Source: Acaryochloris thomasi RCC1774
GTDB taxonomy: Bacteria > Cyanobacteriota > Cyanobacteriia > Thermosynechococcales > Thermosynechococcaceae
Reading direction: 5' to 3'
DNA length: 32,000 nucleotides
Assembly: GCF_003231495.1 (NCBI RefSeq)
Contig: NZ_PQWO01000009.1
Coordinates: 120,001-152,000, forward strand
Positions 3,228-21,488 of the stretch are shown in pieces. Within the stretch, counting starts at the first letter, position 1, and each line of letters opens with the position of its first letter. The translations under genes were made by a program, and so were the position numbers. Below the pieces are notes generated by a model, which saw only the letters and a program-made list of their open reading frames with translations, had not been told where the DNA came from and did not search any database.

Positions 3228-6200
3228 GACGACACCTCCTGATTGTCGGGGGCAACCGCTTTGCGTCGAACTCGCTTGAGCTTACTTAAGCTAGAGGTTT
3301 CTAGCGTTTGCATCTGTTGATTCTGATTCTGTTGCTGCTCTACTTGCAAATTGTTGAGTAGATGCCCCACCGTCGTTTGAGAATCTGTCATCTGCCGAAG
3401 AACTGTGGCGAACTGCTGTAGCCAACGTTCAATCTGTGAGGTTTGGAATCTCGTTAAATCCACCATCATTTCTAGTTTGAGAGAGGCACCCGGTAGCACT
3501 CGGACGGTAAGCGGGTAGCTGTTGTTAGAGGTCGAGCGAAAGTCCTGCAACCTAACGGAAGCTGGCATATTTTGAAAGGCTGAGGCATCAACGGGATAAT
3601 TCTCAAACACCAGAAGACTCTCAAAAAGTGAAGTTCCCTTGGAAACGGCAGTGAGTTGCTGAACTTGAGTTAAAGAAGAGTATTCGTACTGGCGAACCGT
3701 GATTTGCTGCTGCTGCAGAGCCATTAACCAAGAAAGGATTTCTAGCTCCGGCTCAATTTGTATTCGCACAGGCAACGTATTGATGAACACTCCGACCATC
3801 TGCTCTGCACCGACGAGTTCAGGGGGGCGACCTGCAGTGGTGGCTCCAAAGACAACGTCTTGCTGAGCGCTGATATGACTCAGTAAGATGCCCCAGGCTC
3901 CTTGAGCGAGGGTATTGGTGGTTAGGCGGTGCCGCTGGCTGAATTCCTGGAGGGTGATTGAGACCTCTTCACTGACAACGTACTCAAGGCAGGTATAACC
4001 CTGTTCGCGATCTGCACGACTGCCCAGAATGGGGTTTGTCTTTCCGCCGAGGGAGGTGGGACTTGAAAAGCCCTGGAGGTACTGACGCCAAAATTGAGTG
4101 GCTTGGTCTTGGTCCTGCTTTGATAACCAGTGAATGTAATCGCGGTAGGGGCATGGGGTTAGGGCTGCAAAGGATTGGCTCTTCTCTAACGCACCGTAAT
4201 GCTGAAAGACCGTTTGCAGCACCAACGGAAGTGACCAGCCATCCAGAATTAGATGGTGGAAGCTCCAGATTAATTCGTGGGTGTCTTCGCTCAGGCGGAC
4301 AAGCTGCACACGCATGAGCGGAGCTTGGTCGAGCGCAAAGCCTTCAACTCGGTCGTCGTAAAGAATTTTTCCTAGAGACTGTTCTAGAGAGTGCTGCTGG
4401 GATGCAATATTGCTGCGTTGGCCCCGTTCGGCTGAACTCATATCGAAGCCTAAATCTCCCAAAATTGGAGGATTTTGATCGTCTCGACTCGAAGCGTCAG
4501 AAGGAACTAGGTCGATTGTGGTCCAAGGGAGACTGACCTGAGGCTCTACATATTGCAGCGGTTGGTCTAATCCTTCCCAGACAAAGGCTGTCCTCAATGC
4601 AGGATGCTGATCAATCACTGCCTGCCAAGCCTGTTGGAGTGCGTTAACGTTCAGATTCCCTTTGAGCTTGTAGGAAAACTGGGTGATGTAAAGGCCGCTG
4701 TTAGGAGCGTAGAGGGTGTGGAATAGAATGCCCTGCTGAGCTGGCGAGAGGGGGTACAGATCTGCAATTTTTCCTTTTGCTGTGATTAGGTGATCTAGCT
4801 GCCGCTGCTGGATGGGCGCGAGGGGGAAATCTGAGGGGGTAAAGCCGCAGTTGTTTGGATCAAGGCAGTGGGAGAGTTGCGATCGCAACTCTCCACAAAA
4901 AGACATCGCCATCGTTTCAATCGTGGCAGCCCGGTACTGGGCTTGACTATACCCAAACCGAAGAGTTAGTTGTCCTGCTGTGATTTCAGCATCAACCGTT
5001 AGTGCGTGTGTGCAGGGATTGTCTAACCCTTTCAATGGCCCCATCGACTCAGGAGCAACAGAAAAGAGAGCATCCGTTCCTAGCTCAAACTGTCCCAGAT
5101 AGTTGAATCGAATAGGCGCAGGGGCTTGGGATTGGAGTTCTGCGTCTCTCGCTAGGTAGCGCAAGACCCCATAACCTAACCCCTGATCAGGAACCTGCCG
5201 CAGTTGTTCTTTAATAGTCTTTAGCGCAGTGCTAAGTTCCGCTGCATCTGATAAATCAAACTGAACAGGATAGAGCGTCGTAAACCAGCCCACCGTCCGG
5301 GAAATATCTATCCCTAGGTCTGCCCGTCCGTGCCCCTCAAAGTCGATGCGGAGAGTTGGCTGTTTTGACCATTGGGTGATGGCGCGAACCAGCGCCGCCA
5401 CCAGCAAATCATTAATAGTCGCGGAGTAAGCTTTGGGGACTCGTTGTAATAACGTTGTGGTCTCTGCAGTTGAAAGCTGGATTTCGTGCGTTCTTCGAGT
5501 GGCGTAGGTATTGCTGCCGTCGGAAAAATCAATGGGCAATGGAGTTGCCTCTACTCCTTGCTGTAGCCAAAAGTCCTTTTGAGCAAGGGCATCATAACCC
5601 TTAAGCTGTTGATTCCATTGTCGAGCGGAGCAGGTTTTAGGGGGAAGGTTCTGCTGCTTGAGTAAGGCTTGAAAGTCGTCGAGCAAGATGCGCCAAGAGA
5701 TACCATCGACAACGAGATGATGGATCGTGATTAAAAGGCGATCTGCTTCTTGAGGGGCCGTGCGGAATAGAGCAATTTGAAGGAGGGGGCCAACTGTGAT
5801 GTTAAGGCTGGACTGTACTTGAGCGGCTGTCTCTGTGATGGCGAGGGACTGCTGTTCAGGAGGAAGCGAGGTAAGGCTGATCTCCTGGCAGAGGATTTCG
5901 TTTGTGGACTCTGGAATCGTTTGGGTCCAGTGGGATTGGGTCGGGGAAAATTGTGTCGGAGAGAATTGCGATCGCAACCCATCATGATGCTGCACTAACC
6001 GCTCAACACACCGCTGCAGTTCAACAAACGTCAGCGACGAAGGCACCTTCAATAGAACCGCTTGATTCCAATGGTCAGGATTTGGGAGTGCCTGCTCAAA
6101 GAACCAGTGCTGAATCGGCAAAAGTGAACTGTTTCCAGCAACCGCTTGCTCGGCTTTAATCACGGGAACCGTACCTGCCACCTGCGCGAGGGAGCGAATC

Positions 6201-9200
6201 GTCTGATGTTGAAATAGTTGTTTCGGCGTGAGCTGCAGGCCAGCTTGGGTTGCCCTCGACACCACCTGCAAGCTCAGAATAGAGTCTCCACCCAGCTCAA
6301 AAAAATTATCATCAATGCCAATAGAGGACACGTTCAGGAGCTGTGACCAGATATCAGCTAACAATTGCTCCGCAGTTGTCTGAGGAGGCTGCTGCTCACG
6401 TTTGTCTGACTCAAAGTGAGGCGGTACTAATGCCCGACGGTCGATCTTCCCATTGGGAGAGAGAGGAAGCTGTAGCAAAGGCACAAAAATCCCAGGCACC
6501 ATGTAGTCTGGCAACTTGGGCGCTAGCCACTTCTGTAGTTCCGCTATCTTCAGTTCACGCTCTAAAACGCCATAGGCCACAAGCTGTTTTGCCCCGGAGG
6601 GCGCGGTGTGGACCTTGACCGCAACTTCTTTAATCTGTGGGTGCTGCTGTAGGGTTGCTTCAATCTCGCCTAGCTCTATCCGTAACCCCCGAATCTTGAC
6701 TTGATGATCAATACGGCCCAAAAACTCCAGCACCCCTGTGGGTAGATAACGCACTAGGTCGCCGGTTTTATACAGCCGTGCCCCCGATTGATCGCAATAG
6801 GGGTCGGGGATGAATTTCTCTGCTGTGAGACCCGGACGATTGAGGTACCCCCGCGCCAAACCAATGCCCCCAATATGCAGCTCTCCCGGCACACCAATAG
6901 GGACGGGATGGAGAAACTGATCTAAAACGTGAAGCTGAATATTAGCGATCGGATATCCCAGCGGAATACTGAGCTGTTGATCGCTGGCTTGGCAGTGCCA
7001 ATGGCTAACGTCAATGGCTGCTTCCGTAGGGCCATAGAGGTTATGAAGTTGGGCTGGTAGATGCTGTTGAAGCTTCTCTTGCAGAGCGACGGGTAGCGCT
7101 TCGCCACTGGCAATCACGGTTTTGAGACAGGAGCATTGTTCAACATCAGGCGTTTCTAAAAAGGCGGAGAGCATCGCCGGAACAAAGTGGATTGTAGAGA
7201 TCTGCTCAGCCTTAATACAGTTGATCAGGTAGGTGCTATCCCGATGGCCTCCTGGCTTAGCCACCACTAACTTGGCTCCGGTCATTAAAGGCCAGAAAAA
7301 TTCCCATACCGACACATCGAAACTGAAAGGGGTTTTCTGCAAGACATGATCGGTTGCATCTAGAGCAAAGGTCTCCTGCATCCACAGCAATCGATTGCAG
7401 ATGGCCGCATGGGTATTCATGGCTCCCTTGGGCTTGCCGGTGGAGCCTGATGTGTAGATGACGTAGGCTAGGTTCGCTGAATGAACTGAACTGTGGAGGT
7501 GGGTTTGGGGCTGTGTGGCAATCTGGTCCTGTTCAAGGGGCAAGCAGGGGACATTCTCGGGTAGACGAGATCGCAACGTCTCCTGCGTCAGGACAAGCGC
7601 GGGCTGAGCATCGGCCACCATATAGGCGATTCTTTCTGCCGGATAGTCTGGGTCGAGAGAGACATAGGCACCGCCTGCTTTGAGAATGCCGAGCAGCGCA
7701 ACCACTAGATCTAGCGATCGCTCTAGGAAAACCCCGACCAGGATATCTGGGCCAATGCCCCTTTCTTTGAGGGTGTGGGCAAGTTGATTGGCGCGAGTAT
7801 CTAACTCTCTATAAGTGAGGGATTTTTGGGTTCCGTTTTCTTCAAGAGAAGCGAGGGAGGTTGCGATCGCATCCGGCGTCCGATCAACCTGCTGTTCAAT
7901 CCAAACATGAAGCGGCTGATCAAGTGGATAGCGGGTCTGGGTTTGGTTCCACTTCTGACGCTGTTCTAAATCGAAAGGTGTCAACAGCGGCAGATCACTA
8001 AGATTTGCTTGAGGATGCTCAACAATTCCCTCCAGCAAAGTATGCCAATGAGCCAACATCCGCTTGATGGTGGCGGAACTATATAAATCGGTGCTGAACT
8101 CCATCAGAGCAGTGAGGCCGTTATTCTGCTCTATACAAATCAAGGTCAAATCAAACTTGGTGGTGTGGGTGTCGTAGCGCAGGGGGGTGAGGGTCAGCCC
8201 TGGAACGGTTAAGGAGGTGGTGGGCACATTTTGTAAAATCAGCATCACCTGAAACAGTGGCGAGTGACTAAGATTACGCAGAACATCCAGCTCGTCTATG
8301 AGTTTTTCGAAGGGTAGATCCTGGTGACCGTAGGCCCCTAGCGTTCGCTCTCGAACTTGCTCTAGCAATTCTTTGAAGGTGGGATTGCCGGATAAATCGG
8401 CTCGCAGAGCCAGGGTATTGAGAAAAAAGCCGATCAGCCCTTCGATTTCTATCTGGTTGCGATTGGCAATGGGAGTACCCACCGTTATATCGGACTGGTG
8501 GGTGTAGCGGTGCAGCAAGACTTGAAAGCTTGCCAGCAAAACCATAAATAGGGTGCAGTCTGTCTCTTGAGCGAGTTGCTCTAGGGCTGCTGTCAACGGT
8601 TCAGGCAGCTCAATAGTGCAGCAATCGCCTTGGTAGGTTTGCTGAGCGGGACGAGGCCGATCTGTTGCAAGAGCTAGAACCGGCGGCAGGGTTTCAAACT
8701 GCTGTCGCCAATAGTCGAGCTGTGTTTCTAGACGCTTTGTTTGGTGCCGCTGCCAGTGGGCAAAGTCGGCGTACTGCATCGGTAAGGGAGGCAAAGCCAC
8801 AGGTTTTGACTGAAGAGCCGAGGTGTAGAGAAGCGCCAGTTCCCGGACAAAAATGCCTGTTGACCAGGCATCAGAAATGATGTGATGGAGCGTAAATAGC
8901 AGAACTGATTCTGCGGCAGAAAGCCCGATCAGCGTGACGCGCAGCAATGGTCCTTTACTGAGATCAAAGGCTTTTGCACCATCTAGAATGGCTAATCGCT
9001 CAATCTCTTGTTCTTGGCCTGCTTGAGATAGCTTCGATAAATTGATCTGCTCAATAGGGAAGCAATCCCATCTTGCGGTACTCTCCCCCCAGAGTTGGGG
9101 GGCCGGGGGGGCGAGTGCAACACCTTTGAAATCATTATTTAGATGCGGATGAATAATCTGCTGAGGCTGTTCGTCCACCGTGGCAAAAGTCGTCCGCAGA

Positions 9201-9520
9201 ATTTCGTGTCGGTCCACCATCTGATTGAGTGCCTGCTGGAAGGCATCAATATCAAGATCTCCCTCTAATCGCAGAGCAGTGGGAATGTTGTAGAAGGGAT
9301 GATTGGGTTCAAGCTGGGTCAGAAACCAGAGCCGCTGTTGCGAAAAAGATAGCGGTGCTGATGTTTTTGAAGGCCGCTGCGGAATGATGGCGCGAGGTTT
9401 CCTCTCTCCTCGGAGTCGCTTTGCGAGTAAGGCACGTTTGGCCGCTGAAAGCTGAGCTGTATTAGCTGGCATTGAGCTGCTCCTCTGCTTCGTCGTCGCT
9501 GAGAGCTTCAATTTCCGCAA
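3224..9520 (-). CDS. Non-ribosomal peptide synthetase, C-A(Ser)-T-E-C
   Basis: 2098-aa ORF. Motifs: C (HHIISDAWS); A (LAYVIYTSGSTGKPKG; code by eye DVWHISLIDK, Ser-type); T (FFELGGDSILSLQV); E (LLPIQHWFFEQ, HHLVVDGISWRIL); DCL-type C (LYPLSPAQQGILFH, HHLILDGWS). It ends after the C domain with a basic tail and no T or TE. An alternative start ATG at 9472-9470 (MPANTAQLSAAKRALL...) would cut the overlap with the upstream gene from 59 to 11 nt. The true start is undecidable from sequence alone. Confidence 0.95.
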   Translation of the reverse strand: MRKLKLSATTKQRSSSMPANTAQLSAAKRALLAKRLRGERKPRAIIPQRPSKTSAPLSFSQQRLWFLTQLEPNHPFYNIPTALRLEGDLDIDAFQQALNQMVDRHEILRTTFATVDEQPQQIIHPHLNNDFKGVALAPPAPQLWGESTARWDCFPIEQINLSKLSQAGQEQEIERLAILDGAKAFDLSKGPLLRVTLIGLSAAESVLLFTLHHIISDAWSTGIFVRELALLYTSALQSKPVALPPLPMQYADFAHWQRHQTKRLETQLDYWRQQFETLPPVLALATDRPRPAQQTYQGDCCTIELPEPLTAALEQLAQETDCTLFMVLLASFQVLLHRYTHQSDITVGTPIANRNQIEIEGLIGFFLNTLALRADLSGNPTFKELLEQVRERTLGAYGHQDLPFEKLIDELDVLRNLSHSPLFQVMLILQNVPTTSLTVPGLTLTPLRYDTHTTKFDLTLICIEQNNGLTALMEFSTDLYSSATIKRMLAHWHTLLEGIVEHPQANLSDLPLLTPFDLEQRQKWNQTQTRYPLDQPLHVWIEQQVDRTPDAIATSLASLEENGTQKSLTYRELDTRANQLAHTLKERGIGPDILVGVFLERSLDLVVALLGILKAGGAYVSLDPDYPAERIAYMVADAQPALVLTQETLRSRLPENVPCLPLEQDQIATQPQTHLHSSVHSANLAYVIYTSGSTGKPKGAMNTHAAICNRLLWMQETFALDATDHVLQKTPFSFDVSVWEFFWPLMTGAKLVVAKPGGHRDSTYLINCIKAEQISTIHFVPAMLSAFLETPDVEQCSCLKTVIASGEALPVALQEKLQQHLPAQLHNLYGPTEAAIDVSHWHCQASDQQLSIPLGYPIANIQLHVLDQFLHPVPIGVPGELHIGGIGLARGYLNRPGLTAEKFIPDPYCDQSGARLYKTGDLVRYLPTGVLEFLGRIDHQVKIRGLRIELGEIEATLQQHPQIKEVAVKVHTAPSGAKQLVAYGVLERELKIAELQKWLAPKLPDYMVPGIFVPLLQLPLSPNGKIDRRALVPPHFESDKREQQPPQTTAEQLLADIWSQLLNVSSIGIDDNFFELGGDSILSLQVVSRATQAGLQLTPKQLFQHQTIRSLAQVAGTVPVIKAEQAVAGNSSLLPIQHWFFEQALPNPDHWNQAVLLKVPSSLTFVELQRCVERLVQHHDGLRSQFSPTQFSPTQSHWTQTIPESTNEILCQEISLTSLPPEQQSLAITETAAQVQSSLNITVGPLLQIALFRTAPQEADRLLITIHHLVVDGISWRILLDDFQALLKQQNLPPKTCSARQWNQQLKGYDALAQKDFWLQQGVEATPLPIDFSDGSNTYATRRTHEIQLSTAETTTLLQRVPKAYSATINDLLVAALVRAITQWSKQPTLRIDFEGHGRADLGIDISRTVGWFTTLYPVQFDLSDAAELSTALKTIKEQLRQVPDQGLGYGVLRYLARDAELQSQAPAPIRFNYLGQFELGTDALFSVAPESMGPLKGLDNPCTHALTVDAEITAGQLTLRFGYSQAQYRAATIETMAMSFCGELRSQLSHCLDPNNCGFTPSDFPLAPIQQRQLDHLITAKGKIADLYPLSPAQQGILFHTLYAPNSGLYITQFSYKLKGNLNVNALQQAWQAVIDQHPALRTAFVWEGLDQPLQYVEPQVSLPWTTIDLVPSDASSRDDQNPPILGDLGFDMSSAERGQRSNIASQQHSLEQSLGKILYDDRVEGFALDQAPLMRVQLVRLSEDTHELIWSFHHLILDGWSLPLVLQTVFQHYGALEKSQSFAALTPCPYRDYIHWLSKQDQDQATQFWRQYLQGFSSPTSLGGKTNPILGSRADREQGYTCLEYVVSEEVSITLQEFSQRHRLTTNTLAQGAWGILLSHISAQQDVVFGATTAGRPPELVGAEQMVGVFINTLPVRIQIEPELEILSWLMALQQQQITVRQYEYSSLTQVQQLTAVSKGTSLFESLLVFENYPVDASAFQNMPASVRLQDFRSTSNNSYPLTVRVLPGASLKLEMMVDLTRFQTSQIERWLQQFATVLRQMTDSQTTVGHLLNNLQVEQQQNQNQQMQTLETSSLSKLKRVRRKAVAPDNQEVSS
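4440..4480. repeat. Possible heavily decayed relic of the same element in the DCL C domain
   Basis: aaatctcccaaaattggaggattttgatcg resembles tttccccccagaattggggggctagggggg with many GC-to-AT changes. The host peptide NPPILGDLG echoes SPPILGGK. The surrounding loop is about 25-30 aa longer than in sister C domains of this cluster. Confidence 0.3.
4870..6130 (-). other. Epimerization domain
   Basis: LLPIQHWFFEQ and HHLVVDGISWRILLDDF. It is preceded by a GGDSI-type T domain and followed by a DCL-type C domain (roughly 3330-4850). Confidence 0.85.
5939..5968 (-). repeat. Tandem 2 x 15-nt in-frame duplication (QFSPT-QFSPT) in the E domain
   Basis: The minus strand reads caattctctccgaca followed by caattttccccgacc. 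The three differences are all third-position and synonymous. The repeat directly abuts a HIP1 site at 5968-5975. Confidence 0.8.
9075..9119 (-). repeat. Solo arm of the G6/C6 palindromic element (copy A), in frame inside the first C domain of the 2098-aa NRPS
   Basis: ctctccccccagagttggggggccgggggggcgagtgca at 9081-9119. Across the G/C runs and hairpin it matches the arm at 19639-19678 except for one loop base, and the outer 8 nt also differ. No recognisable partner arm lies within 100 bp. Host translation is VALAPPAPQLWGES. Confidence 0.7.
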
Positions 9521-12500
9521 TTAAGACTTCTTCAATGACGTCGGCGATTTCTGCGACAGTATGGGCGTCAAACAGCCGTCTTAGAGGTAGCTCAATCTGA
9601 AAGGTTTCCCGCAGGCGGGACAGCACTTGAGTGGCGAGGAGGGAATGACCGCCGAGGTCAAAGAAGTTGTCGGTGACGCCGACGGTCTCGAGCTGGAGAA
9701 TGTCGCACCAGATAGTTGCGATCGCAACCTCAGTCTCAGTCCTGGGGGCCACAAAATTCTGACTTAACTCTGGCCGTACCTTCTCTGGGATCGGCAGCGC
9801 CTGACGGTTCACCTTACCGTTAGTGGTCAAGGGCAAGATCTTCAGCACTACAAGCAAACTCGGAATCATATAGTCCGGGAGCTGGGTCTGCAGATACTGC
9901 CGCAGGTCAGCCGTATCCGTCACGGTTTTGGTCCTCACAACATAGGCAACCAGCATCGGATTGTCTCGCTGATCTTCACGGACCACGACCACCGTTTCTT
10001 TTACGGCGTCGTGCTGGGTCAAGACGGCCTCAATTTCACCTAACTCAATCCGAAAACCATGCAGTTTGACTTGCTGATCGATTCGTCCCAAGAATTCATA
10101 TGAACCGTCGGGCAGCAGTCGAGCGCGATCTCCGGTTTTATAGAGTCGCTCTTCAGCACTATTTATCCCAACGGGAAGAGTAATAAATCGCTCAGTTGTG
10201 AGCTGAGGGCGATTGAGATACCCTCGCCCCACCGTTCGCCCTCCGACATAAACTTCTCCTGGCACTCCGATGGGGACGGGCTTTTGATGAGCATCTAGCA
10301 CATAAACTTGAACACCATCAAGGGGAATGCCAAGGGGAACGGTGGCACTGATGGCTTCTGCAATGGATTCGGTCGTTACGGCCTCGGTCATCACCCCTAC
10401 CGTTGTTTCAGTAGGGCCATAGTGATTGAAAATCTGACAGTGGGGTTGCAGCGCCATAATGCTCTCAATCAATGACCAGCGGCAGACTTCTCCCCCTAAA
10501 ATCAGTCGCTGTTGCGGCAGAACGCCAGAAGGACTTGGCCCCTTTAAGAGTGCCTGTAAATGAGAGGGGACTATTTTCAAGCAAGCAATCTGTTGTTGTT
10601 GACAGTAATCGGCAAAAGCTTGGCTATCGCAGACGCGCTCTGTTGCCAGTAGATGCAGCGTTCCCCCCTGGCAGAGGCTCGGGAACAGCATTGTATGCCC
10701 AAGGTCTGCCGCTAGCGTAGAGACAGAGGCATAGCTAGCGGAGGGAGGGAGCTGCAGGCGCTCAATGATGCCGTAAACATAGGTCATTAACTGACGGTGT
10801 TCCACTGCAACAGGCTTGGGTTGCCCTGTGGACCCTGAGGTATAGATTAGATAGGCCAAATTTTCGGGCGTGGCCTGACTCTGCGGCGGTTTGATTGGAT
10901 ACTGCTGGAGCCGTTCTTGTTCTGCTTCTAAGCAAAAGATAGGGGGGGAATCAGACGGTAAATTGGGCAGCAGCTCCGTTTGGGTAATGATGACGGGGAC
11001 TTTTGCATCCTCCAGTCTAAACGCTAGTCCTGCTGTTGGTAAGGCCGGATCAAGGGGCAAATAAGCGCTGCCTGATTTGAGAATGGCTAGAATTGCGACG
11101 ACGGCATCCACCGAACGTTCTAAATACAGTGCTACAGGGATATCGGGGCCAGCGCCACAGTGCTGCAGCGCATGGGCCAGTTGGTTGGCCCGTTGTTCTA
11201 GAGCCTGATAGGTAAGCTGCTGTTCTTCATACACGACCGCAGTTTGGTTGGGTTTCTGCAAAGCCTGCTGAGCAAATTGCTGATGGAAACAGTCGAGGAG
11301 TTGGGTTCCTGGATCAATTTTTATAGGGCTGGGCAGCTCCTCTTGCTTGAGTGTGAGAGGAATGTTGCCAAGTGATTGTTCTGGATTCTCTAGCGCATGA
11401 GTCAGTACTGCCTGCCACTGACTTGTAAATATCTTGATGGCCTCTTGCGATAGCAAACTGGAGCTGTAATAGAGTGCAGCCTTGAAGGTATTACCTTGGG
11501 CAGTACAGGTTAAATGGAGAGGAATATTACAACTTCCCCAGATCCGGTCAATCTCAAACGCTAAATCTCCCGCAGAGAGAAGCGGAATTGTCTGATACTC
11601 AAAGCCCACGGAATGCTTTTGCTCAACGCCAGGGAAGTAGTCCTGCCATTCTTCAAGCTGCTCCCATTCTTGTTGAACGTGTTGAACTAAGGTTGCAAAG
11701 GATATCGATTCAGAGAGACATCCCAGAAAAGGAAGAGGTTGCTGAAAGGCTCCGATGCCTGACTCAAGTTCTGGGTCAGAGCGATGTTGGGGAATGACTC
11801 CGATGGTGAAATCGGGTTGTTCTGTCTGCCGCCACAGCATCACTAGCCAACTGGCAAGCAGAATTGCACCAGAATTCGGCGAGGAACTAAGCTGTTCCTG
11901 CACAGATTTTGATAGCTGAATTTTGTGGACTTCAGTTTGATTGTCAGAAGGTGCATTCCTCCGACTCAAAGGAGCCGAGAGCGATGGCAGCTCTACTCGC
12001 CGTTGCCAAAAATCTTGTCCAGCGCTGGCTTCTTCATCATTCTCTAGGGACTGCTGCCAAGTTACGAATTCAGAAAATTGAACCAGCTCTTCAGAGTCGG
12101 TGAGTCTCTGTCCACCATAATGTTGCGCTAACTCAGTGACTAAGAGATGCAGGCTGTGATGGTCTGCACAGAGGGCGGGTACGGTCAGAAGTAGCCAATA
12201 TTCTTTGGCTTGCCCTCCTAAAACGGCTTTAATGACCGGGAGCTGTTCTAAGGTGTGGGGCTGTTGGCGAATGTCTGCAATGGCTTGCTCTAGAGTGATG
12301 TTTTCCTCAACACGCTGCAAACTTACAGGGGCTTGGGGTTCCACCACTTGGAGAGGCATCGTCAGCGTGGCCGGTTGGCGAAAGATCGTCCTCAAGCTTT
12401 CGTGACGTTTAACAACGGTCTCCAAGGCTTGACGAAGTTTTCCTCTATCGAGGTCTCCCTTCAATGACACAAGAATCTGATTGCAGTGAGCCTGCTCTGT

Positions 12501-12566
12501 CTGCAGTGACCAAAGTTGGCGCTGCTGAGTTGATAGTTGAAATCCGCTGAGGGTTTGAGACTGCAT
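9462..12566 (-). CDS. Non-ribosomal peptide synthetase, non-catalytic C-like (interface-type) domain-A(Asp)-T
   Basis: 1034-aa ORF. The N-terminal C-fold of about 420 aa has PALCAD (12162-12179) aligned to HHxxxD, so both catalytic His positions are replaced by Pro-Ala. A domain: LAYLIYTSGSTGQPKP, code by eye DLTKIGHVGK (Asp-type). T domain: FFDLGGHSLLATQV. Acidic C-terminal tail EALSDDEAEEQLNAS. Confidence 0.95.
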   Translation of the reverse strand: MQSQTLSGFQLSTQQRQLWSLQTEQAHCNQILVSLKGDLDRGKLRQALETVVKRHESLRTIFRQPATLTMPLQVVEPQAPVSLQRVEENITLEQAIADIRQQPHTLEQLPVIKAVLGGQAKEYWLLLTVPALCADHHSLHLLVTELAQHYGGQRLTDSEELVQFSEFVTWQQSLENDEEASAGQDFWQRRVELPSLSAPLSRRNAPSDNQTEVHKIQLSKSVQEQLSSSPNSGAILLASWLVMLWRQTEQPDFTIGVIPQHRSDPELESGIGAFQQPLPFLGCLSESISFATLVQHVQQEWEQLEEWQDYFPGVEQKHSVGFEYQTIPLLSAGDLAFEIDRIWGSCNIPLHLTCTAQGNTFKAALYYSSSLLSQEAIKIFTSQWQAVLTHALENPEQSLGNIPLTLKQEELPSPIKIDPGTQLLDCFHQQFAQQALQKPNQTAVVYEEQQLTYQALEQRANQLAHALQHCGAGPDIPVALYLERSVDAVVAILAILKSGSAYLPLDPALPTAGLAFRLEDAKVPVIITQTELLPNLPSDSPPIFCLEAEQERLQQYPIKPPQSQATPENLAYLIYTSGSTGQPKPVAVEHRQLMTYVYGIIERLQLPPSASYASVSTLAADLGHTMLFPSLCQGGTLHLLATERVCDSQAFADYCQQQQIACLKIVPSHLQALLKGPSPSGVLPQQRLILGGEVCRWSLIESIMALQPHCQIFNHYGPTETTVGVMTEAVTTESIAEAISATVPLGIPLDGVQVYVLDAHQKPVPIGVPGEVYVGGRTVGRGYLNRPQLTTERFITLPVGINSAEERLYKTGDRARLLPDGSYEFLGRIDQQVKLHGFRIELGEIEAVLTQHDAVKETVVVVREDQRDNPMLVAYVVRTKTVTDTADLRQYLQTQLPDYMIPSLLVVLKILPLTTNGKVNRQALPIPEKVRPELSQNFVAPRTETEVAIATIWCDILQLETVGVTDNFFDLGGHSLLATQVLSRLRETFQIELPLRRLFDAHTVAEIADVIEEVLIAEIEALSDDEAEEQLNAS
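11306..12566 (-). other. C-fold domain lacking catalytic histidines (PALCAD), candidate interface domain
   Basis: Aligned by eye, LLLTVPALCADHHSLHLLVTELAQHY corresponds to LLFTLHHIISDAWSTGIFVRELALLY of a canonical C domain in the same cluster. It lies immediately downstream of the fused TauD domain. Confidence 0.7.
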
Positions 12567-12569
12567 GGG

Positions 12570-15500
12570 TTAGGTTGCTGACTGAGTAGATGGAGAGTCG
12601 ATCATTTGTCCCAGGGCGACGACAATTTTGCGCGTACCTGTGTAGGGCTGGCGACCGTGGGCCATCAGCATGTTGTCCAGCATCAGCACGTCGCCTTTTT
12701 GCCAGGTGAACTGCTGGGCGCAGACCTGATAGGCGGCGTTGACTTCGGCTAAGACCTCTGGTTCAATTTCAGAGCCGTCGCCGTAATAAACCTGACGCGG
12801 CAGGCAGTCACCGCCCAGTAAAGAGCGCAGAGATGCTTGGGTCTCGGGGTCGATATAAGAGAAATGATGGAGCTGAAGCTGATTGAAGAACACTTGGTCT
12901 TGGGTCTGGGGATGGGTTGCGATCGCATCTCTCACCTGCCGAGTTCTCAACCCACCATCCTCAAGCCAAATACACTCAACCCCTTTGCTCTGACAGCGCC
13001 ACTCCACTACGGTGCGATCATCCGTCTGAAAGAAGTCTTGCCAACTGACATCTAGACCCGGCACAAAGTTACGCTCATACATCAGCTTCTTTTGAGCAAA
13101 GCGATCGCGCACCTCTGGACGCAGCCTTTGATAGAGCTGTCGACAATCAACAATCGGGGTCTCTCCGCCTGATACCGAAGGCTGAACACAAAAGAACCAG
13201 ATCTTCATCGGCCACTGTTCGAGGTGAGAGCTTTCGTTATGAAACAAGATCGCCCGATCGTCGGGATAGGGTGTAGAACCATAGACCTTGCCCCCAACCT
13301 CTGTGCGCGGCAGATCGCCATACTCACCAAACAGTTCAGGGCACATGGCCTTTGCCACATCTTCAAAGGCTGAAGCATCGGGGATATCAAACCCTCTAAA
13401 CAACAGCGCCCCAGACTGCTGAAGCTGCTGCTCTAGCTGTGGTCGTTGCTCCTGCGCCCAGGCGGCAAGATTCACTGCCGGGAGTTGGGGCTGATAGAGA
13501 CCAACGCCAGTGGGGTGGGTGCTGAAACCTACAACTTCTGTTGGGGAAACGGCTCGGTTTTTCTGCCGCTGAAAGCGCTTGCGTTTAGGAGGTGGCGCGG
13601 TGAACTGAGAAATGATGGCTTCAATCGAAGTCTCTGGAGCTTCCACTAACTTTTGGAGAAGATCTGTATATTGCTGCGCCAGCCGATTGATGGTGGTGTC
13701 CTGAAAGACATCGGTGCTGTAATTCCAGTTGATCACTAACCCCTCAGGTGTCTCTTGAATAAACAACGCTAGGTCAAATTTGGCTACCTGAGCCTCGGGC
13801 TGGGTGGGCGTCATCTTCAGGTCCGGCAGCTCTATCGCTGGCATCGGTGCATTCTGGAGTACAAACAAGACCTGAAATAGAGGCAGTAGACCCTCCTGAC
13901 GCTCAGGCTGTAGGACATCGACAAGCTGGGCAAAGGGAATATCTTGATGGTCATAAGCACCCAGCGCCACGGTCTTCACTCGCTGCAGTAGCGCTTTAAA
14001 GCTGGGATTACCAGAGAGATCGGTACGCAAGACCAACAAATTCACAAAGAAACCAATCAGACCTTCCAGTTCACTGCGAATGCGGTTGGCAACATCGGTG
14101 CCCACCCAGATGTCTCGCTGCTGGGTATGGCAGCTTAACAAGATCTTGAAGCCTGCCATCAGGGTCATAAACAGAGTCGTGTCTTCTTGTTGACTCAGTT
14201 TCACGAGCGCTTCAGACAGGTGGGGCGATAGCGTCAAAGAGACCGTCACGCCTTGATCGCTTCGCTGGGCAGGCCGGGGAGAATCCAGGGGTAACGCCAG
14301 GGTTGGCAGGTCTCCGCCTAGCTGTTGTCGCCAGTAGGTGAGCTGTGGTTCAAGGTCTTGCTGACGCTGCCAGAAGGCGAAATCTGCATATTGGATGGGG
14401 AGCGGGGGCAGAGTGACATCACGCTTTGAAACAATTTGGGTGTAGAGCTGCGAAAGGTCTTGAATTAAGACGCCCTTCGACCAGCCATCGGCAATGATGT
14501 GGTGCATTGTGAACAGCAGCACATGTTTCTCTGGGTCTAGTTTTAGGAGCTTGGTTCGTAGTAAGGGGCCTTGGGAGAGAGTGAAAGGGGTTTGAGTGTT
14601 TGCGATCGCAAGTTTCTCCAATACCAGCTCTTGTTCGTCTAAGGTCAAATCCTGTAAATCAACGACAGGAATATTGAGCGTCAGCGACTCAGCAATCAAC
14701 TGCACAGGTTGACCACCAACGCATGCGTGACCTTCTGCATTGCCCCCCCGGCCCCCCAATTCTGGGGGGAGAGTCTCAGAGGTTAGTTTGTTTCCCCCCA
14801 GAATTGGGGGGCTAGGGGGGCCAGTGAAATATCTGTGCTGGATTTCCGAGATCTGAGTAGACACCTCTGACTCCAGGCAGAAGGTCGTCCGCAGAATTTC
14901 GTGCCGCTCAACAATTACATTTAAACTCGACTGCAGAGCAGCAATATCTAAACGGCCTTCAAGCAACACTATTGCAGGCTCGTTATAGGCACTGTTTCCT
15001 GGAGTGAGCTGATCCATAAACCACAGCCGTTCCTGAGCAAAAGATAAGGGCAACGGCTGTTGACGACTGATCGGAACAAGGCGAGTAGCAGACTGCAGCG
15101 GCGGTGCTAAATCAATATGAGTCGCTAGAGTTGCTATCGTAGGGGAGCTAAACAGCAACTGAAGCGGCAGCTCCACGGAGAAATGACTGCGAATTCGAGA
15201 CACCACTTGAGTCGCGAGTAGCGAGTGACCCCCTAGCTCAAAGAAGTTGTCATCAACGCCTGCTTGTTCAATCCCTAAAATCTCAATCCAGATTTGCGCG
15301 AGCTGCTTTTCTGTCGGTGTTTGAGGCGTGACAAAGGCATGACTGCGTTTAGAATTCGAACCCTCTGTAGAGGCTAAGGCTCGACGATCTAGCTTACCGT
15401 TGGGCGTTAACGGAAACTCACTCACCCAGATGAATTGGGCTGGCATCATATAGTCGGGCAGAGATATCCGCAACCACTGCTGTAGCTCATTTAGCTTGGG

Positions 15501-18500: not shown

Positions 18501-21488
18501 CTTGCCATTGGGGAGCAAAGGAAATTTCTCTAGTACCACAAACAGGCTGGGCACCATGTAGGTGGGTAATGTAGCAGTTAAGAACTGCCGCAGTTCTGCC
18601 GCTGGAATCTGCAGTTCATTTGGACAAAGACAGTAGGCCAAAAGTTGAGCATCATTATCTTGAGCATCAGCAATAACGATCGCATCTGTAATGGCTGGAT
18701 GCTGGACAAGATGGGTCTCTATTTCACCGAGTTCTATCCGTAGACCGCGCAGCTTGACCTGATGATCAAGGCGTCCTAGAAATGCGATCGCACCATCACT
18801 TCGATAACAGGCCAGATCGCCTGTCCGATAGAGCCGTGCCCCTGGTTCTGCACTAAAGGGATTCGGAATGAAGCTAGTCGCTGTCTGCCCCGGACGATTG
18901 AGATAGCCCCGCGCCAGTCCAACGCTGCTCACAAATAGCTCTCCCGGAACGCCCACGGGGAGTCGCTGAAATCGATGATCTAATATGTAGATCTGAGTAT
19001 TAGAAATGGGCGTCCCAATAGCGGGTAGGGCATCGTCTTCAGCGTTGTACACGGTGGCGCAGATGGTCGTCTCCGTGGGACCGTAGGCATTGAAAAACCG
19101 CCGTCCTGATCGCCATTTTTTGACGAGTTCTGCTGAGCAGGCTTCTCCTGCTGTAATGATCGTGGTCAGGTCCGGCAGCGCTTGCGGATCGAGGGGCGCT
19201 AGGGCCGTCGGCGGCAGGGTGGCATGGGTAATCTTTCGACTGAGCAAGAATTCCTGTAAAGGCTTTCCGGGTAAGAGCTGATCGCTCGTTCCGATATGGA
19301 GGGTGGCTCCAGCGCTCCAGGTCATTACCATTTCCCAGACCGAGGCATCGAAGCTGGCTGAGGCAAACTGAATGACTTGACTATCGGGATCGAGCTGAAA
19401 CAGATCTTGCTGAGCCTGACTCAAATTGGTAAGGCCGCGATGGGTGAGCATGACACCTTTAGGTTTGCCAGTGGAGCCAGAGGTATAGATGACGTAGGCT
19501 AAGTGGTCCAGTGTTTGAGGAGAGCGAGGATTCTGCGCTGGCCCCCTAACCCCCCCACTGGTGGGGGACTTTGAGTTCTGTTTTGTTCTAGACAGGACAA
19601 TCAAATCTAGCCCTGTGGATACAGACAAATTAACGGCACTCTCCCCCCAGAATTGGGGGGCCGGGGGGGCCAACGCAGGACCATCACTAGAAAACAGATC
19701 AATATAGGCAGGCTGAGTCAGCAAAACCTCAGCCTCAGCCACCATCATCTGCAACCGCTGTTCAGGATAGGTCGGGTCAAGGGGAATATAGGCTCCACCC
19801 GCTTTCCAGACCGCAAGAATCGCCACCATCAATTGCGGAGAGCGGTCTAAACAGATGCCCACCAGCGTTTCTGGACCGACGCCGTGATTTTGCAGCTCTC
19901 GCGCTAGATCGTTGGCCTGCTGATTAAAGTCTTGATAGGTGAGCTGTAGGTTTTTGGATGAAATCGCAACCTCCCTCCCCCTCTCCACTGCCTGACGCTC
20001 AATCAACTCATGGATACAAAATTGTGGGTAATGGCCTTGGGTTTGATTCCAGTCCTGAAACTGCTGGTGTTCAGAGAAACTGAGCAACTCAAGTTGACCA
20101 ATGGGCTGATCGGGTTGAGCCAGAATATCTGAGAGCAGAATGTTCCAGTGCTCGACGAGTCGTTCAATGGTCGCCCTATCAAACAAATCACGGCTGTGTT
20201 CAAACCATCCTTGTATCGATTGATCCCCTTCAAACAACTGCAGGACTAGATCAAACGGTGAGGTCTGTAGGTCAAGGGTGACGGGCTTTAGGGTCAGATC
20301 CGCGCAGCGAAAAGATTGGCTTGGATCGGCCTGTAGGCCAAACATCACCTGCAGGAGGGGGGCTGAACTTTGAGATCGCACCGGCGCTAGAACTTCAATC
20401 AACTTCTCAAAAGGCAAATCCTGTTGATCATTCGCTTCCGCCACCACAGAGCGAACCTGCTGCAGGACTTGGCGAAAGGTCCAGGTGGGTTTCAACTGGG
20501 CGCGAAGGGCGAGGGTATTCACAAACACCCCTATCAATCCTTCAGTTTGCACTTGGTTACGATTCGCCACTGGAGAACCCACCAGCAAATCCGTCCGTCC
20601 TGTATAGCGATAGAGCAAAGTGTAGAAAGCCGCGAGACCCACCATAAACGGCGTCGCGTTGGACTGCTGTGCCAAGTGCCTTAGCTTTGCAGTCTGATCT
20701 GCCGATAAACTGACGCTGATTCTACCGCTCTGCATCGACTGAATTGCAGGACGAGAGCGATCTGAAGGAAGTTCAAATAGCGTCGGCACGTCTTGAAGCT
20801 GCTGCCGCCAATAGTCTAAAAGGGTATTTAATTTCTGCCCTTGAAGTTGCTGACGTTGCCACAAAGTATAGTCTGCATACTGGATTGAGAGAGATGGCAA
20901 ATCGGTTGTTAAGTCACTGTAAAGAGTTGCCAATTCTCTAATCAACACGCCCAGCGACCAGCCATCGGCAATGATGTGATGAGCATTGAAGAGCAGGACA
21001 TGATCCTCAGCACTCAACCGGAGAATCGTAGTCCGCAGCAGCGGCGCTTGGGATAGATCAAAGGGCTGCTTTGTGGTTTCAACGATCAGACGCTCCACCG
21101 CCTGCGGTGAGCCATTGTCCTGAAGTTCAATCATCGGCAACTGCCAATCTAGAGCCGCCACAATATCTTGGACTGGATCGCCTGCTTCATTTGTGATGAA
21201 CTGAGTTCGCAGGGATTCATGGCGTTCACAGAGCCGCTGAAAACAGTCGCGCAAGCGTTCAATCTCTAATAGTCCTTTAATTTTGACCGCTGCTGGCAGC
21301 GTCAGACCCTCAGGCTGTAGCTGCTGGAGAAGCCAGAGACGTTGCTGGGCAAAGGCGAGCGGAAATGCTGTTTGCTCACGGGGCTGGCGGGCAATCTCGC
21401 CCGACGCTTGCTTTTGCTGCAGCCGTTGAGTGAGCTGAGCAAGTTGCTCTGGAGATAGTCCAGCAATCTGGTTCGCTAAGTTACTCAT
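12570..21488 (-). CDS. Non-ribosomal peptide synthetase, C-A(Phe)-T-C-A(Gly)-T-C-TauD (fused dioxygenase domain)
   Basis: 2972-aa ORF. Order: C (HHIIADGWS); A1 (code by eye DAWTIAAICK, identical to the GrsA Phe code); T (FFELGGHSMLATQV); C (HHIIADGSS); A2 (DILQLGLIWK, Gly code); T (FFELGGHSLLATQV); C (HHIIADGWS); basic linker PPPKRKRFQRQKNR; then a TauD/TfdA domain of about 325 aa. ATGA overlap with the upstream gene at 21485-21488. Confidence 0.95.
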   Translation of the reverse strand: MSNLANQIAGLSPEQLAQLTQRLQQKQASGEIARQPREQTAFPLAFAQQRLWLLQQLQPEGLTLPAAVKIKGLLEIERLRDCFQRLCERHESLRTQFITNEAGDPVQDIVAALDWQLPMIELQDNGSPQAVERLIVETTKQPFDLSQAPLLRTTILRLSAEDHVLLFNAHHIIADGWSLGVLIRELATLYSDLTTDLPSLSIQYADYTLWQRQQLQGQKLNTLLDYWRQQLQDVPTLFELPSDRSRPAIQSMQSGRISVSLSADQTAKLRHLAQQSNATPFMVGLAAFYTLLYRYTGRTDLLVGSPVANRNQVQTEGLIGVFVNTLALRAQLKPTWTFRQVLQQVRSVVAEANDQQDLPFEKLIEVLAPVRSQSSAPLLQVMFGLQADPSQSFRCADLTLKPVTLDLQTSPFDLVLQLFEGDQSIQGWFEHSRDLFDRATIERLVEHWNILLSDILAQPDQPIGQLELLSFSEHQQFQDWNQTQGHYPQFCIHELIERQAVERGREVAISSKNLQLTYQDFNQQANDLARELQNHGVGPETLVGICLDRSPQLMVAILAVWKAGGAYIPLDPTYPEQRLQMMVAEAEVLLTQPAYIDLFSSDGPALAPPAPQFWGESAVNLSVSTGLDLIVLSRTKQNSKSPTSGGVRGPAQNPRSPQTLDHLAYVIYTSGSTGKPKGVMLTHRGLTNLSQAQQDLFQLDPDSQVIQFASASFDASVWEMVMTWSAGATLHIGTSDQLLPGKPLQEFLLSRKITHATLPPTALAPLDPQALPDLTTIITAGEACSAELVKKWRSGRRFFNAYGPTETTICATVYNAEDDALPAIGTPISNTQIYILDHRFQRLPVGVPGELFVSSVGLARGYLNRPGQTATSFIPNPFSAEPGARLYRTGDLACYRSDGAIAFLGRLDHQVKLRGLRIELGEIETHLVQHPAITDAIVIADAQDNDAQLLAYCLCPNELQIPAAELRQFLTATLPTYMVPSLFVVLEKFPLLPNGKVDRKALPHPEYQPREKPVVAPRNQTETDLVQIWQRVLNRQDVGIEDSFFELGGHSMLATQVITNIQTHFGIDLPLRQIFETPTISGLAASLNVQHSPAESRISQINRAGDLPLSFAQQRLWFLEQLETTGATYHITTKLHLQGHLQLTALQQSLDKIVERHEILRTRFIAHEGQPTVVIDPARPLDLPIIDLEGDSRQQQSEQLKQLLEQDTQASFDLAQGPLLRVKIVRVGLEDAIAIVTLHHIIADGSSTQIFLRELTEFYQTFSQGQELEIPQLPLQYVDYAHWQRQNLQGEFLATQLEYWQQQLTPLPASLDLPFDRPRPPTQTYAGETFNFKLSSPTDLRALAPSAGTTPYMVLLAVFKVLLYRYTGQTDIAIGSPIVNRNNADIEGLIGLFANTLVLRTDLAGNPSFSMLLQRVKDVALDAYAHPDLPLEKLVEELQLPRDLSHSPLFQVMFAHQTAPGQVTVPGLTITPDALATHTAKFDLTLTITETEAEITGVLEYNTDQFDLSTIERLAGHYQTLLEAIIKEPEQSIGNLPLLTALEQQQFIQGAQTQLPQWSGLHRWFEHQVEQTPESIALEFKSQTLTYAELNAQANQLARYLLVKGIAPEDRVGLLLNRSPEMVVALLAVLKAGGTYLPLDPAYPIERLRYMVADAQVKVLITDGEPLIESEVVINGAIDRVAIAKQTTQNLGLTTFPEQLAYVIYTSGSTGKPKGVQITHQAVINFLTAHGQSPGITADDVMFAVTSLSFDIAVLELLLPLVNGAKVLLASREMALDGIQLGQSLQQATLMQATPATWRLLLASGWTGQQHLKILSGGEALSSDLAAQLITCGSELWNLYGPTETTIWSTQQAVLAKEAVGIGFAIANTQVYILDSHLQQVPTGVTGELYIGGLGLARGYHQRPGLSAERFIPNPFSNKPGARLYRTGDLACVQKDGSIRHLGRIDDQVKVRGFRIELGEIETCLNQHPLITQAVVISAEGADTLVAYGQLQEETEPKLNELQQWLRISLPDYMMPAQFIWVSEFPLTPNGKLDRRALASTEGSNSKRSHAFVTPQTPTEKQLAQIWIEILGIEQAGVDDNFFELGGHSLLATQVVSRIRSHFSVELPLQLLFSSPTIATLATHIDLAPPLQSATRLVPISRQQPLPLSFAQERLWFMDQLTPGNSAYNEPAIVLLEGRLDIAALQSSLNVIVERHEILRTTFCLESEVSTQISEIQHRYFTGPPSPPILGGNKLTSETLPPELGGRGGNAEGHACVGGQPVQLIAESLTLNIPVVDLQDLTLDEQELVLEKLAIANTQTPFTLSQGPLLRTKLLKLDPEKHVLLFTMHHIIADGWSKGVLIQDLSQLYTQIVSKRDVTLPPLPIQYADFAFWQRQQDLEPQLTYWRQQLGGDLPTLALPLDSPRPAQRSDQGVTVSLTLSPHLSEALVKLSQQEDTTLFMTLMAGFKILLSCHTQQRDIWVGTDVANRIRSELEGLIGFFVNLLVLRTDLSGNPSFKALLQRVKTVALGAYDHQDIPFAQLVDVLQPERQEGLLPLFQVLFVLQNAPMPAIELPDLKMTPTQPEAQVAKFDLALFIQETPEGLVINWNYSTDVFQDTTINRLAQQYTDLLQKLVEAPETSIEAIISQFTAPPPKRKRFQRQKNRAVSPTEVVGFSTHPTGVGLYQPQLPAVNLAAWAQEQRPQLEQQLQQSGALLFRGFDIPDASAFEDVAKAMCPELFGEYGDLPRTEVGGKVYGSTPYPDDRAILFHNESSHLEQWPMKIWFFCVQPSVSGGETPIVDCRQLYQRLRPEVRDRFAQKKLMYERNFVPGLDVSWQDFFQTDDRTVVEWRCQSKGVECIWLEDGGLRTRQVRDAIATHPQTQDQVFFNQLQLHHFSYIDPETQASLRSLLGGDCLPRQVYYGDGSEIEPEVLAEVNAAYQVCAQQFTWQKGDVLMLDNMLMAHGRQPYTGTRKIVVALGQMIDSPSTQSAT
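12573..13545 (-). other. TauD/TfdA dioxygenase domain fused to the C-terminus of the 2972-aa NRPS
   Basis: LLFRGFDIPD, GKVYGSTPYPDDRAILFHNESSH (His-x-Glu), GETPIVDCRQ, DNMLMAHGRQPY. It is a paralogue of the free-standing ORF at 2172-3227. Confidence 0.9.
14736..14829 (+). repeat. G6/C6 palindromic MITE-like element, complete short copy (copy B), in frame inside the third C domain
   Basis: Sequence: ctgcattgcccccccggccccccaattctggggggagag + 17-nt core + tttccccccagaattggggggctaggggggccagtgaa. The arms are imperfect inverted repeats, with the inner 19 nt identical. Host translation is FTGPPSPPILGGNKLTSETLPPELGGRGGNAEG. Boundaries are uncertain by about 10 bp. Confidence 0.75.
19533..19678 (-). 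repeat. G6/C6 palindromic MITE-like element, long copy in inverted orientation (copy C), in frame inside an A domain
   Basis: The left arm ctgcgctggccccctaacccccccactggtgggggactttgag is a diverged CTAG/CTAA-type arm with a different loop. A core of about 70 nt follows. The right arm is ctctccccccagaattggggggccgggggggccaacgcag. Host translation is ALAPPAPQFWGES...SKSPTSGGVRGPAQNPRS, located between the A2 and A3 cores. Confidence 0.75.

Follow-up and report, generated by a model that had tools for sequence, protein, structure and literature searches.

A biosynthetic region of the cyanobacterium Acaryochloris thomasi RCC1774 very likely encodes the first of two beta-hydroxyaspartate (beta-OH-Asp) modules in a cyanochelin-type siderophore assembly line, a hybrid of polyketide synthase (PKS) and nonribosomal peptide synthetase (NRPS), in which a condensation (C) domain fused to a TauD hydroxylase is paired with an interface domain as adaptor. 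The region lies in a 32-kb window, the whole stretch of DNA analysed here (contig NZ_PQWO01000009.1, positions 120,001 to 152,000), and spans the junction of two genes. The first gene encodes an NRPS of 2972 amino acids (aa), which ends in a C domain, a basic linker and a TauD domain. The second starts 3 bases past the stop codon of the first, and its 1034-aa product opens with a C-fold domain without the catalytic histidines, in which the motif HHxxxD reads PALCAD. An adenylation (A) domain with an aspartate code and a thiolation, or carrier, (T) domain follow.

An interface-type beta-OH-Asp module had been proposed here from the letters of the sequence, and its parts were all recovered. Pfam and the motif coordinates gave the order C domain, basic linker (with KRKRFQRQKNR) and TauD at the end of the 2972-aa NRPS. 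The His-less domain at the start of the next protein was found as a weak match to the Pfam Condensation family (PF00668; aa 12-409, 132 bits), and PALCAD, at aa 130-135, aligned exactly with HHSISD of the TycC C domain (PDB 2jgp) in HMMER. An alignment anchored on the core motifs of the A domain returned the same ten code positions that had been read by eye, DLTKIGHVGK, which are identical in CcsI and CcsL of the cyanochelin B cluster. Pfam PP-binding and the motif GGHSL marked the T domain after it. As a whole, the proposal is supported by the clade of His-less domains, the Asp code, the HxE...H iron ligands of the hydroxylase and colinearity with the cyanochelin B cluster. Its extent has to be corrected: the interval 11306-13545, to which the module had been assigned, contains PALCAD and the TauD domain, but leaves out KRKRFQRQKNR (13554-13586) and the A and T domains (9534-11276).

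We scanned one genome per species for relatives of both TauD types. At least 582 relatives were confirmed, and the best 80 loci, almost all of them cyanobacterial, were compared. In 78 of these 80 loci TauD is preceded by a C-fold domain whose end lies about 140 nt away, and in 77 it is followed by another. The C domain preceding TauD keeps HHxxxD in every case (78/78). In the first C-fold domain past TauD both histidines are missing, again in every case (77/77), and the motif reads [PS][AS][LIM][CY]AD. In the remaining 102 C-fold domains, the motif is always HH (or Hx) or the D motif of the heterocyclization (Cy) type. The His-less motif is therefore no chance feature: all domains after TauD have it (77/77), and no C-fold domain elsewhere in these loci does (0/180; Fisher p = 1e-67). 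The closest relative in the survey is a metagenome-assembled genome of Acaryochloris, with 78% identity in TauD and only 54% in the interface domain; a close sequenced relative for this locus thus appears to be lacking. Fusion to an NRPS was the rule for the homologous TauD domains (85 of the 90 examined). The A domains show the same regularity: directly after the His-less domain, the code DLTK[IV]GH[IV]GK was found in 73 of 75 cases, counted over the 80 loci and six proteobacterial ones, and no other A domain there has this code.

Phylogenetic analysis also separates these domains from the catalytic ones. Our neighbour-joining (NJ) trees are distance-based (p-distances), with Poisson correction for the largest, which holds 274 domains. 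In that tree the His-less domains were monophyletic in 100/100 bootstraps and stood apart from the LCL, DCL, epimerization (E) and Cy types. The PALCxD domains of the window are thereby placed apart from these types, as the original prediction would have it, in a tree that includes no starter C domains. When six proteobacterial His-less domains were added, they fell into the same clade (65/100 bootstraps). A starter role for the PALCAD domain was rejected solely because it stands midway along the assembly line, at residue 4; in the orthologous product, Gly3 is amide-linked to beta-OH-Asp4. An artefact of assembly or a frameshift as the origin of the two separate genes was also rejected. In nearly all of the 80 loci TauD is soon followed by the end of its reading frame, and the His-less domain is encoded further downstream in a frame of its own.

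The structure of the PALCAD domain was predicted with AlphaFold and compared with solved structures. The model is confident (predicted local distance difference test, pLDDT, 85; predicted template modelling score, pTM, 0.86) and matches solved C domains in Foldseek with template modelling (TM) scores of 0.70-0.78, which indicates a complete C fold. Homologue searches gave 13 sequences for the interface domain alone and 23 for a 24-sequence profile; all were short fragments, most of them unnamed, none was a characterised reference, and they served only as the alignment for the structure prediction. Pfam and NCBIfam contain no model specific to the interface domain, and NCBIfam contains none for these hydroxylases either. 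Such profiles are available in antiSMASH 8, which also detects the hydroxylases as module parts (PMC12230676).

The absence of both catalytic histidines and the low Pfam score could also mean that the domain is a decaying, functionless relic of an active C domain, and that the hydroxylase finds the carrier-bound Asp unaided. Its faster divergence is in line with this: over the same 76 loci, mean identity is 43.5% for the interface domain and 58.8% for the adjoining catalytic C domain. Despite this divergence, the domain keeps its full length and a complete, confidently predicted fold. The replacement motif is conserved in 77/77 domains, together with other family-specific columns, and the domain itself is kept in nearly all of the 80 loci and in the six proteobacterial ones, always beside TauD and an A domain for Asp or His. 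A relic is on these grounds highly improbable.

An adaptor role for the PALCAD domain would have a known parallel. The X domain of glycopeptide assembly lines has the C fold without condensation activity, and recruits an oxygenase acting in trans to the carrier-bound substrate. The X domain of teicoplanin Tcp12, bound to OxyB, is among the best Foldseek matches of the PALCAD domain (PDB 4tx2 and 4tx3; TM 0.70-0.72, E = 7e-27) and also among its best matches in sequence (E = 9e-15). Unlike the PALCAD domain, the X domain recruits cytochrome P450s and not TauD, and it ends the last module, whereas the PALCAD domain starts one. Membership of the PALCAD domain in the glycopeptide X-domain family was rejected for this difference in position and in the TauD neighbour, as the two have no more in common than their fold and the missing catalytic residues. 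The resemblance is thus one of functional analogy.

How the module could work follows from the order of its parts. The A domain of the 1034-aa protein would load L-Asp on its own T domain, which would hold the residue to be hydroxylated. The PALCAD domain would form no peptide bond; as an adaptor, it would keep the terminal C-TauD part of the 2972-aa protein in contact with the carrier that bears Asp. The fused TauD domain would then hydroxylate C3 of the tethered Asp, with a 3S, that is L-threo, product by analogy, and the intact C domain before TauD would condense the incoming chain, which ends in Gly, with beta-OH-Asp on the next protein. The linker between C and TauD is typically basic in the homologues, with a mean of 7.8 Lys and Arg against 3.1 Asp and Glu in the first 35 residues past the C domain (84 loci).

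Each Asp is served by two C-fold domains and needs one condensation, therefore one of the two is catalytically spare. Because the upstream domain is always intact and is the more conserved, we infer, as is also done in the literature, that it performs the condensation and that the PALCAD domain is non-catalytic. The roles could be reversed if the PALCAD domain were a working, non-canonical C domain that makes the Gly-Asp bond, with the C domain before TauD only docking or regulating the hydroxylase. The PALCAD domain does stand where a C-A-T module normally has its C domain, and it retains the Asp of HHxxxD. An upstream C domain that keeps HHxxxDG in 78/78 loci and is better conserved would however be hard to explain if it were non-catalytic, and the His-less clade lies apart from all catalytic subtypes sampled. 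We consider this reversal very unlikely.

The ligand motifs HNE and AHGR are kept in both TauD domains of the window and form invariant columns in the alignment. The fused domain shares 60% identity with the fused domain of BAU16013 and 44-48% with proteobacterial fused domains. The stand-alone TauD encoded further downstream shares 63-64% with CcsK (BAU16062), 51% with MobD of Tistrella and 35-37% with the proteobacterial fused domains. A TauD NJ tree was restricted to the columns of the C-terminal 245 residues of MobD, which is frameshifted in the plasmid record, and was built without a characterised IbH_Asp reference and without Asn, Glu or Arg hydroxylases. It separated, in 200/200 replicates, the fused cyanobacterial domains and four proteobacterial fused domains from a group of stand-alone cyanobacterial domains, MobD, and the domains from Bradyrhizobium and Methylocystis. 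MobD of tistrellabactin is a stand-alone TbH_Asp enzyme (PMC10391617). The TbH_Asp enzymes (MobD, DelD, SyrP-like) belong to the same family acting on NRPS-bound Asp, and the stand-alone TauD of the window is found on the MobD side, while the fused TauD is on the opposite side of the split. In the record of the Tistrella mobilis plasmid pTM2 (NC_017966.1, about 8606-9714 of locus L083), mobD is divided over two frames and has no annotated coding sequence, which reflects a frameshift or an error in sequencing.

When the plasmid collection was searched with tblastn, the window matched plasmid 2 of Leptolyngbya sp. NIES-3755 (AP017310.1), which carries the cyanochelin B (ccs) cluster (PMC12628792). 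All seven open reading frames (ORFs) of the window are reciprocal best matches of BAU16012-16015 and BAU16061-16063, in the same order. The two clusters agree in gene and domain order across the window, in their identical Asp codes and in their Cys and Gly codes, and PALCAD is also found in CcsI. The A-domain codes in the window are DLYNLSLIWK (Cys), DAWTIAAICK (Phe; first A domain of the 2972-aa NRPS, read by eye at the motif positions), DILQLGLIWK (Gly), the Asp code given above, DVWHISLIDK (a known Ser type) and a partial DLTKIG.. (Asp) in the last A domain, which runs off the window edge. They predict the order Cys-Phe-Gly-Asp-Ser-Asp, the residue order of cyanochelin B, which consists of thiazoline, Phe, Gly, beta-OH-Asp, D-Ser, beta-OH-Asp and ethanolamine (PMC12628792). 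According to nuclear magnetic resonance and Marfey analysis, residue 4 of cyanochelin B is L-threo-beta-OH-Asp, assigned to the fused hydroxylase of CcsFGH together with CcsI. Residue 6 is D-threo, and was assigned to the stand-alone CcsK together with CcsL, which has an E domain (PMC12628792). The split between fused and stand-alone hydroxylases in our tree agrees with this reported stereochemistry.

The clusters also differ. The interface domain itself is only 33% identical between the two, and the window genes carry in-frame repeat insertions. Megablast of positions 9400-14000 against the plasmids gave no match, therefore the window is not nearly identical to the NIES-3755 plasmid. BAU16014 (2382 aa) has a C-methyltransferase between its A and T domains, whereas its counterpart in the window (2055 aa) has no methyltransferase match in Pfam. 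An unmethylated thiazoline is therefore predicted from this Cy-A-T module, and by its domain content a desmethyl analogue of cyanochelin B is the probable product of the cluster. In total, ORF calls, Pfam and phmmer domain envelopes gave seven ORFs, all encoded on the minus strand and all but one complete (Table 1). The window covers the interior of the cluster, and both cluster ends lie beyond it, where a fatty acyl-AMP ligase for the start, a reductive release and linked genes for TonB-dependent uptake would be expected in a cluster of the cyanochelin type.

Table 1. Features of the Acaryochloris thomasi RCC1774 window and their counterparts in the cyanochelin B cluster; the last row gives coordinates within the named related loci.
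Feature	Positions	Strand	Basis	Counterpart (identity)
PKS with luciferase-like monooxygenase, dehydratase (DH)-like, C-methyltransferase, ketoreductase (KR) and acyl carrier protein (ACP)	27603-31976	-	Pfam and domain envelopes	BAU16015 (47-54%)
Ketosynthase (KS)-linker-ACP-Cy-A-T protein, 2055 aa	21485-27652	-	Pfam and domain envelopes	BAU16014 (54%)
C-A-T-C-A-T-C-TauD NRPS, 2972 aa	12570-21488	-	Pfam and domain envelopes	BAU16013, CcsFGH (51%, full length)
Catalytic C domain adjoining the hydroxylase, third of the 2972-aa NRPS (aa 2144-2631)	13596-15059	-	phmmer envelopes	
Intact HHIIADG of this C domain	14484-14504	-		
In-frame, repeat-derived insert of 51 aa in this C domain	14727-14879			
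Lys/Arg-rich C-TauD linker	13476-13595	-	sequence, conserved in homologues	
KRKRFQRQKNR	13554-13586	-		
Fused TauD/TfdA-type Fe(II)/2-oxoglutarate beta-hydroxylase domain (aa 2672-2957 in Pfam)	12573-13475	-	PF02668, 154 bits	
HxE iron ligands of fused TauD	13233-13241	-		
Distal His iron ligand of fused TauD	12657-12659	-		
Stop codon of 2972-aa protein	12570-12572	-		
C-fold-A-T protein, 1034 aa	9462-12566	-	Pfam and domain envelopes	BAU16012, CcsI (47%)
Interface-type domain, N-terminus of 1034-aa protein	11334-12548	-	Pfam, alignment, tree, model	
PALCAD	12162-12179	-		
A domain, Asp code DLTKIGHVGK	9813-11276	-	Pfam AMP-binding and AMP-binding_C, code extraction	
T (carrier) domain, GGHSL	9534-9725	-	Pfam PP-binding, motif	
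Ser975 of T domain	9642-9644	-		
C-A-T-E-C NRPS, 2098 aa	3224-9520	-	Pfam and domain envelopes	
Terminal C domain of 2098-aa NRPS, after E domain and before stand-alone hydroxylase, HHLILDG	3329-4765	-	domain envelopes	
Stand-alone TauD, 351 aa	2172-3227	-	Pfam TauD, 162 bits	orthologue of CcsK
Partial ORF, C-fold then A domain	start 2172, runs off window	-	translation	BAU16061, CcsL (39%)
Second interface-type domain	892-2148	-	translation, motif	
PALCTD	1744-1761	-		
Partial A domain, first six code positions DLTKIG (Asp type)	1-891	-	translation, motif positions	
Palindromic element copies	9085-9102, 14752-14811, 19643-19660, 25893-25910, 28981-28998, 29127-29144			
Insert resembling the element in its PPILG peptide	4418-4507			
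Genes between C-TauD and interface-A-T genes in relatives	L007 7038-7433; L012 7213-7965; L014 6935-7579; L025 7025-9911; L044 7035-7871; L067 6967-7953; L081 6893-7699; L082 7174-7944			

Two kinds of short repeats are enriched in the window. HIP1 (GCGATCGC) is present in 22 copies against 0.6 expected, which marks the source as a cyanobacterium. A G/C-rich palindromic element with the core CCCCCCAGAATTGGGGGG occurs in seven copies against 0.03 expected, either alone or in inverted pairs that measure about 85 nt. All palindromic copies lie within NRPS or PKS ORFs, in frame, and are translated into the peptides PPSPPILGG, PPELGGRGG or APPAPQFWGES. Compared with the NIES-3755 orthologues, the copies result in inserts of 18-74 aa, one of them in the first A domain. 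The catalytic C domain that adjoins the fused TauD has an insert of 51 aa, which is absent from the four nearest homologues. A further insert in the 2098-aa NRPS resembles the others in its PPILG peptide only, as the DNA scan of the element gave no match there.

With seven palindromic copies inside the ORFs, and with inserts in the first A domain and in the C domain that precedes TauD, the module could have the design described here and still belong to a cluster that the insertions have inactivated. All insertions are in frame, no ORF is broken across the 32 kb, and all catalytic motifs that we checked are intact. The insert in the C domain follows RHEILRTTF, a place where relatives have few residues and which is presumably a surface loop. 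Inactivation is thus unlikely, although it is the least improbable of the alternatives considered.

Several points weigh against reading the region as an interface-type module of a working assembly line. A sequence search of the PDB returned no interface-domain structure, and its best match was an ordinary C domain (E = 2e-17). Literature searches on the interface domain found citations only, with no experimental work and no biochemical support for an adaptor role in the papers available. The cyanochelin hydroxylases form clades of their own, CyanoBH_Asp1 and CyanoBH_Asp2, and are not part of IbH_Asp proper (PMC12971057); for this reason, we do not claim strict IbH_Asp membership for the fused TauD. 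The NJ trees contain no starter-C, dual E/C or X-domain references, and none of CucF, AltH, SyrP and DelD. Finally, in view of the 51-aa insert in the C domain and the insert in the first A domain, the activity of this particular cluster is not assured.

The design of an interface domain together with a fused IbH_Asp hydroxylase was reportedly defined by Reitz and colleagues in 2019, in proteobacterial siderophore NRPSs such as those for cupriachelin, alterobactin and potashchelin (PtcB). Our survey contains six proteobacterial plasmid loci with the same layout, and their motifs are PALVAD (Janthinobacterium), NPLAAD (Variovorax), SALAAD (Eleftheria), SPLVCD (Azospirillum), SALRAD (Bradyrhizobium) and SPFCCD (Methylocystis). 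As in the window, C-TauD ends one NRPS in the proteobacterial systems, and the next protein has a His-less C-fold domain, an Asp-type A domain and a T domain. The C-TauD layout was seen directly in the loci of Janthinobacterium, Variovorax, Eleftheria and Azospirillum, with A codes of the form DLTK[IV]GH[IV]GK. The hydroxylases and interface domains of both groups of bacteria cluster together, although identity between them is limited (44-48% for TauD and about 25-30% for the interface domain). Reitz et al. 2019 is the work cited for the interface-domain design in PMC12230676, PMC12628792 and PMC7100376.

Some of the related loci depart from this layout. On a plasmid of Methylocystis bryophila (NZ_AP027150.1; 5860-8231 of locus L089), a stand-alone TauD is followed by the SPFCCD domain and an A domain with the non-Asp code DSALIAEVWK, which may represent the counterpart of this design for beta-hydroxy-histidine. 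Additional genes separate the C-TauD gene from the interface-A-T gene in several cyanobacterial relatives (Table 1), therefore these two partners need not be encoded side by side. By eye only, the intervening ORFs resemble a PanD aspartate decarboxylase, S-adenosylmethionine (SAM) methyltransferases, cupin/JmjC-like proteins, an HD-domain protein and an SbnA/SbnB-like pair.

A second PALCxD domain and a second TauD had been pointed out along with the first, and both exist in the window: the PALCTD domain at the start of the partial ORF, and the stand-alone hydroxylase before it. In the NJ tree, the nearest neighbour of the PALCTD domain is the interface domain of CcsL, and the last C domain of the 2098-aa NRPS is closest to its counterpart in BAU16063. 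In CcsL, the orthologue of the partial ORF, the T domain is of the GGDSI type and an E domain is present. TbH_Asp enzymes work with the type of T domain that precedes an E domain, and no interface domain is mentioned for them in PMC10391617. In this second module, the stand-alone TauD is on the TbH_Asp side of the 200/200 split, with MobD, yet it is followed by a His-less domain of the interface type. The module combines schemes that are described separately in the proteobacterial literature available to us. We tentatively suggest that the interface domain of cyanobacteria may be a general adaptor, one that serves hydroxylases outside the fused lineage as well.

The design is already well documented in cyanobacteria, with cyanochelins A-C and the CyanoBH_Asp1/2 clades (PMC12971057). 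Our finding is mainly confirmatory, and the window is a divergent addition to the cyanochelin-type clusters that have been described. Beta-OH-Asp is the iron-binding, light-sensitive group of many aquatic siderophores, and recognizing its modules allows the structure and stereochemistry of a product to be predicted from sequence. The survey numbers support a rule for such predictions, in which an intact C domain and TauD are followed by a His-less C-fold domain and an Asp-type A domain (77-78 loci, nearly all cyanobacterial). If the interface domain is a general adaptor, the stereochemistry at C3 would be set by the hydroxylase alone, and interface domains could graft either hydroxylase onto other Asp modules.

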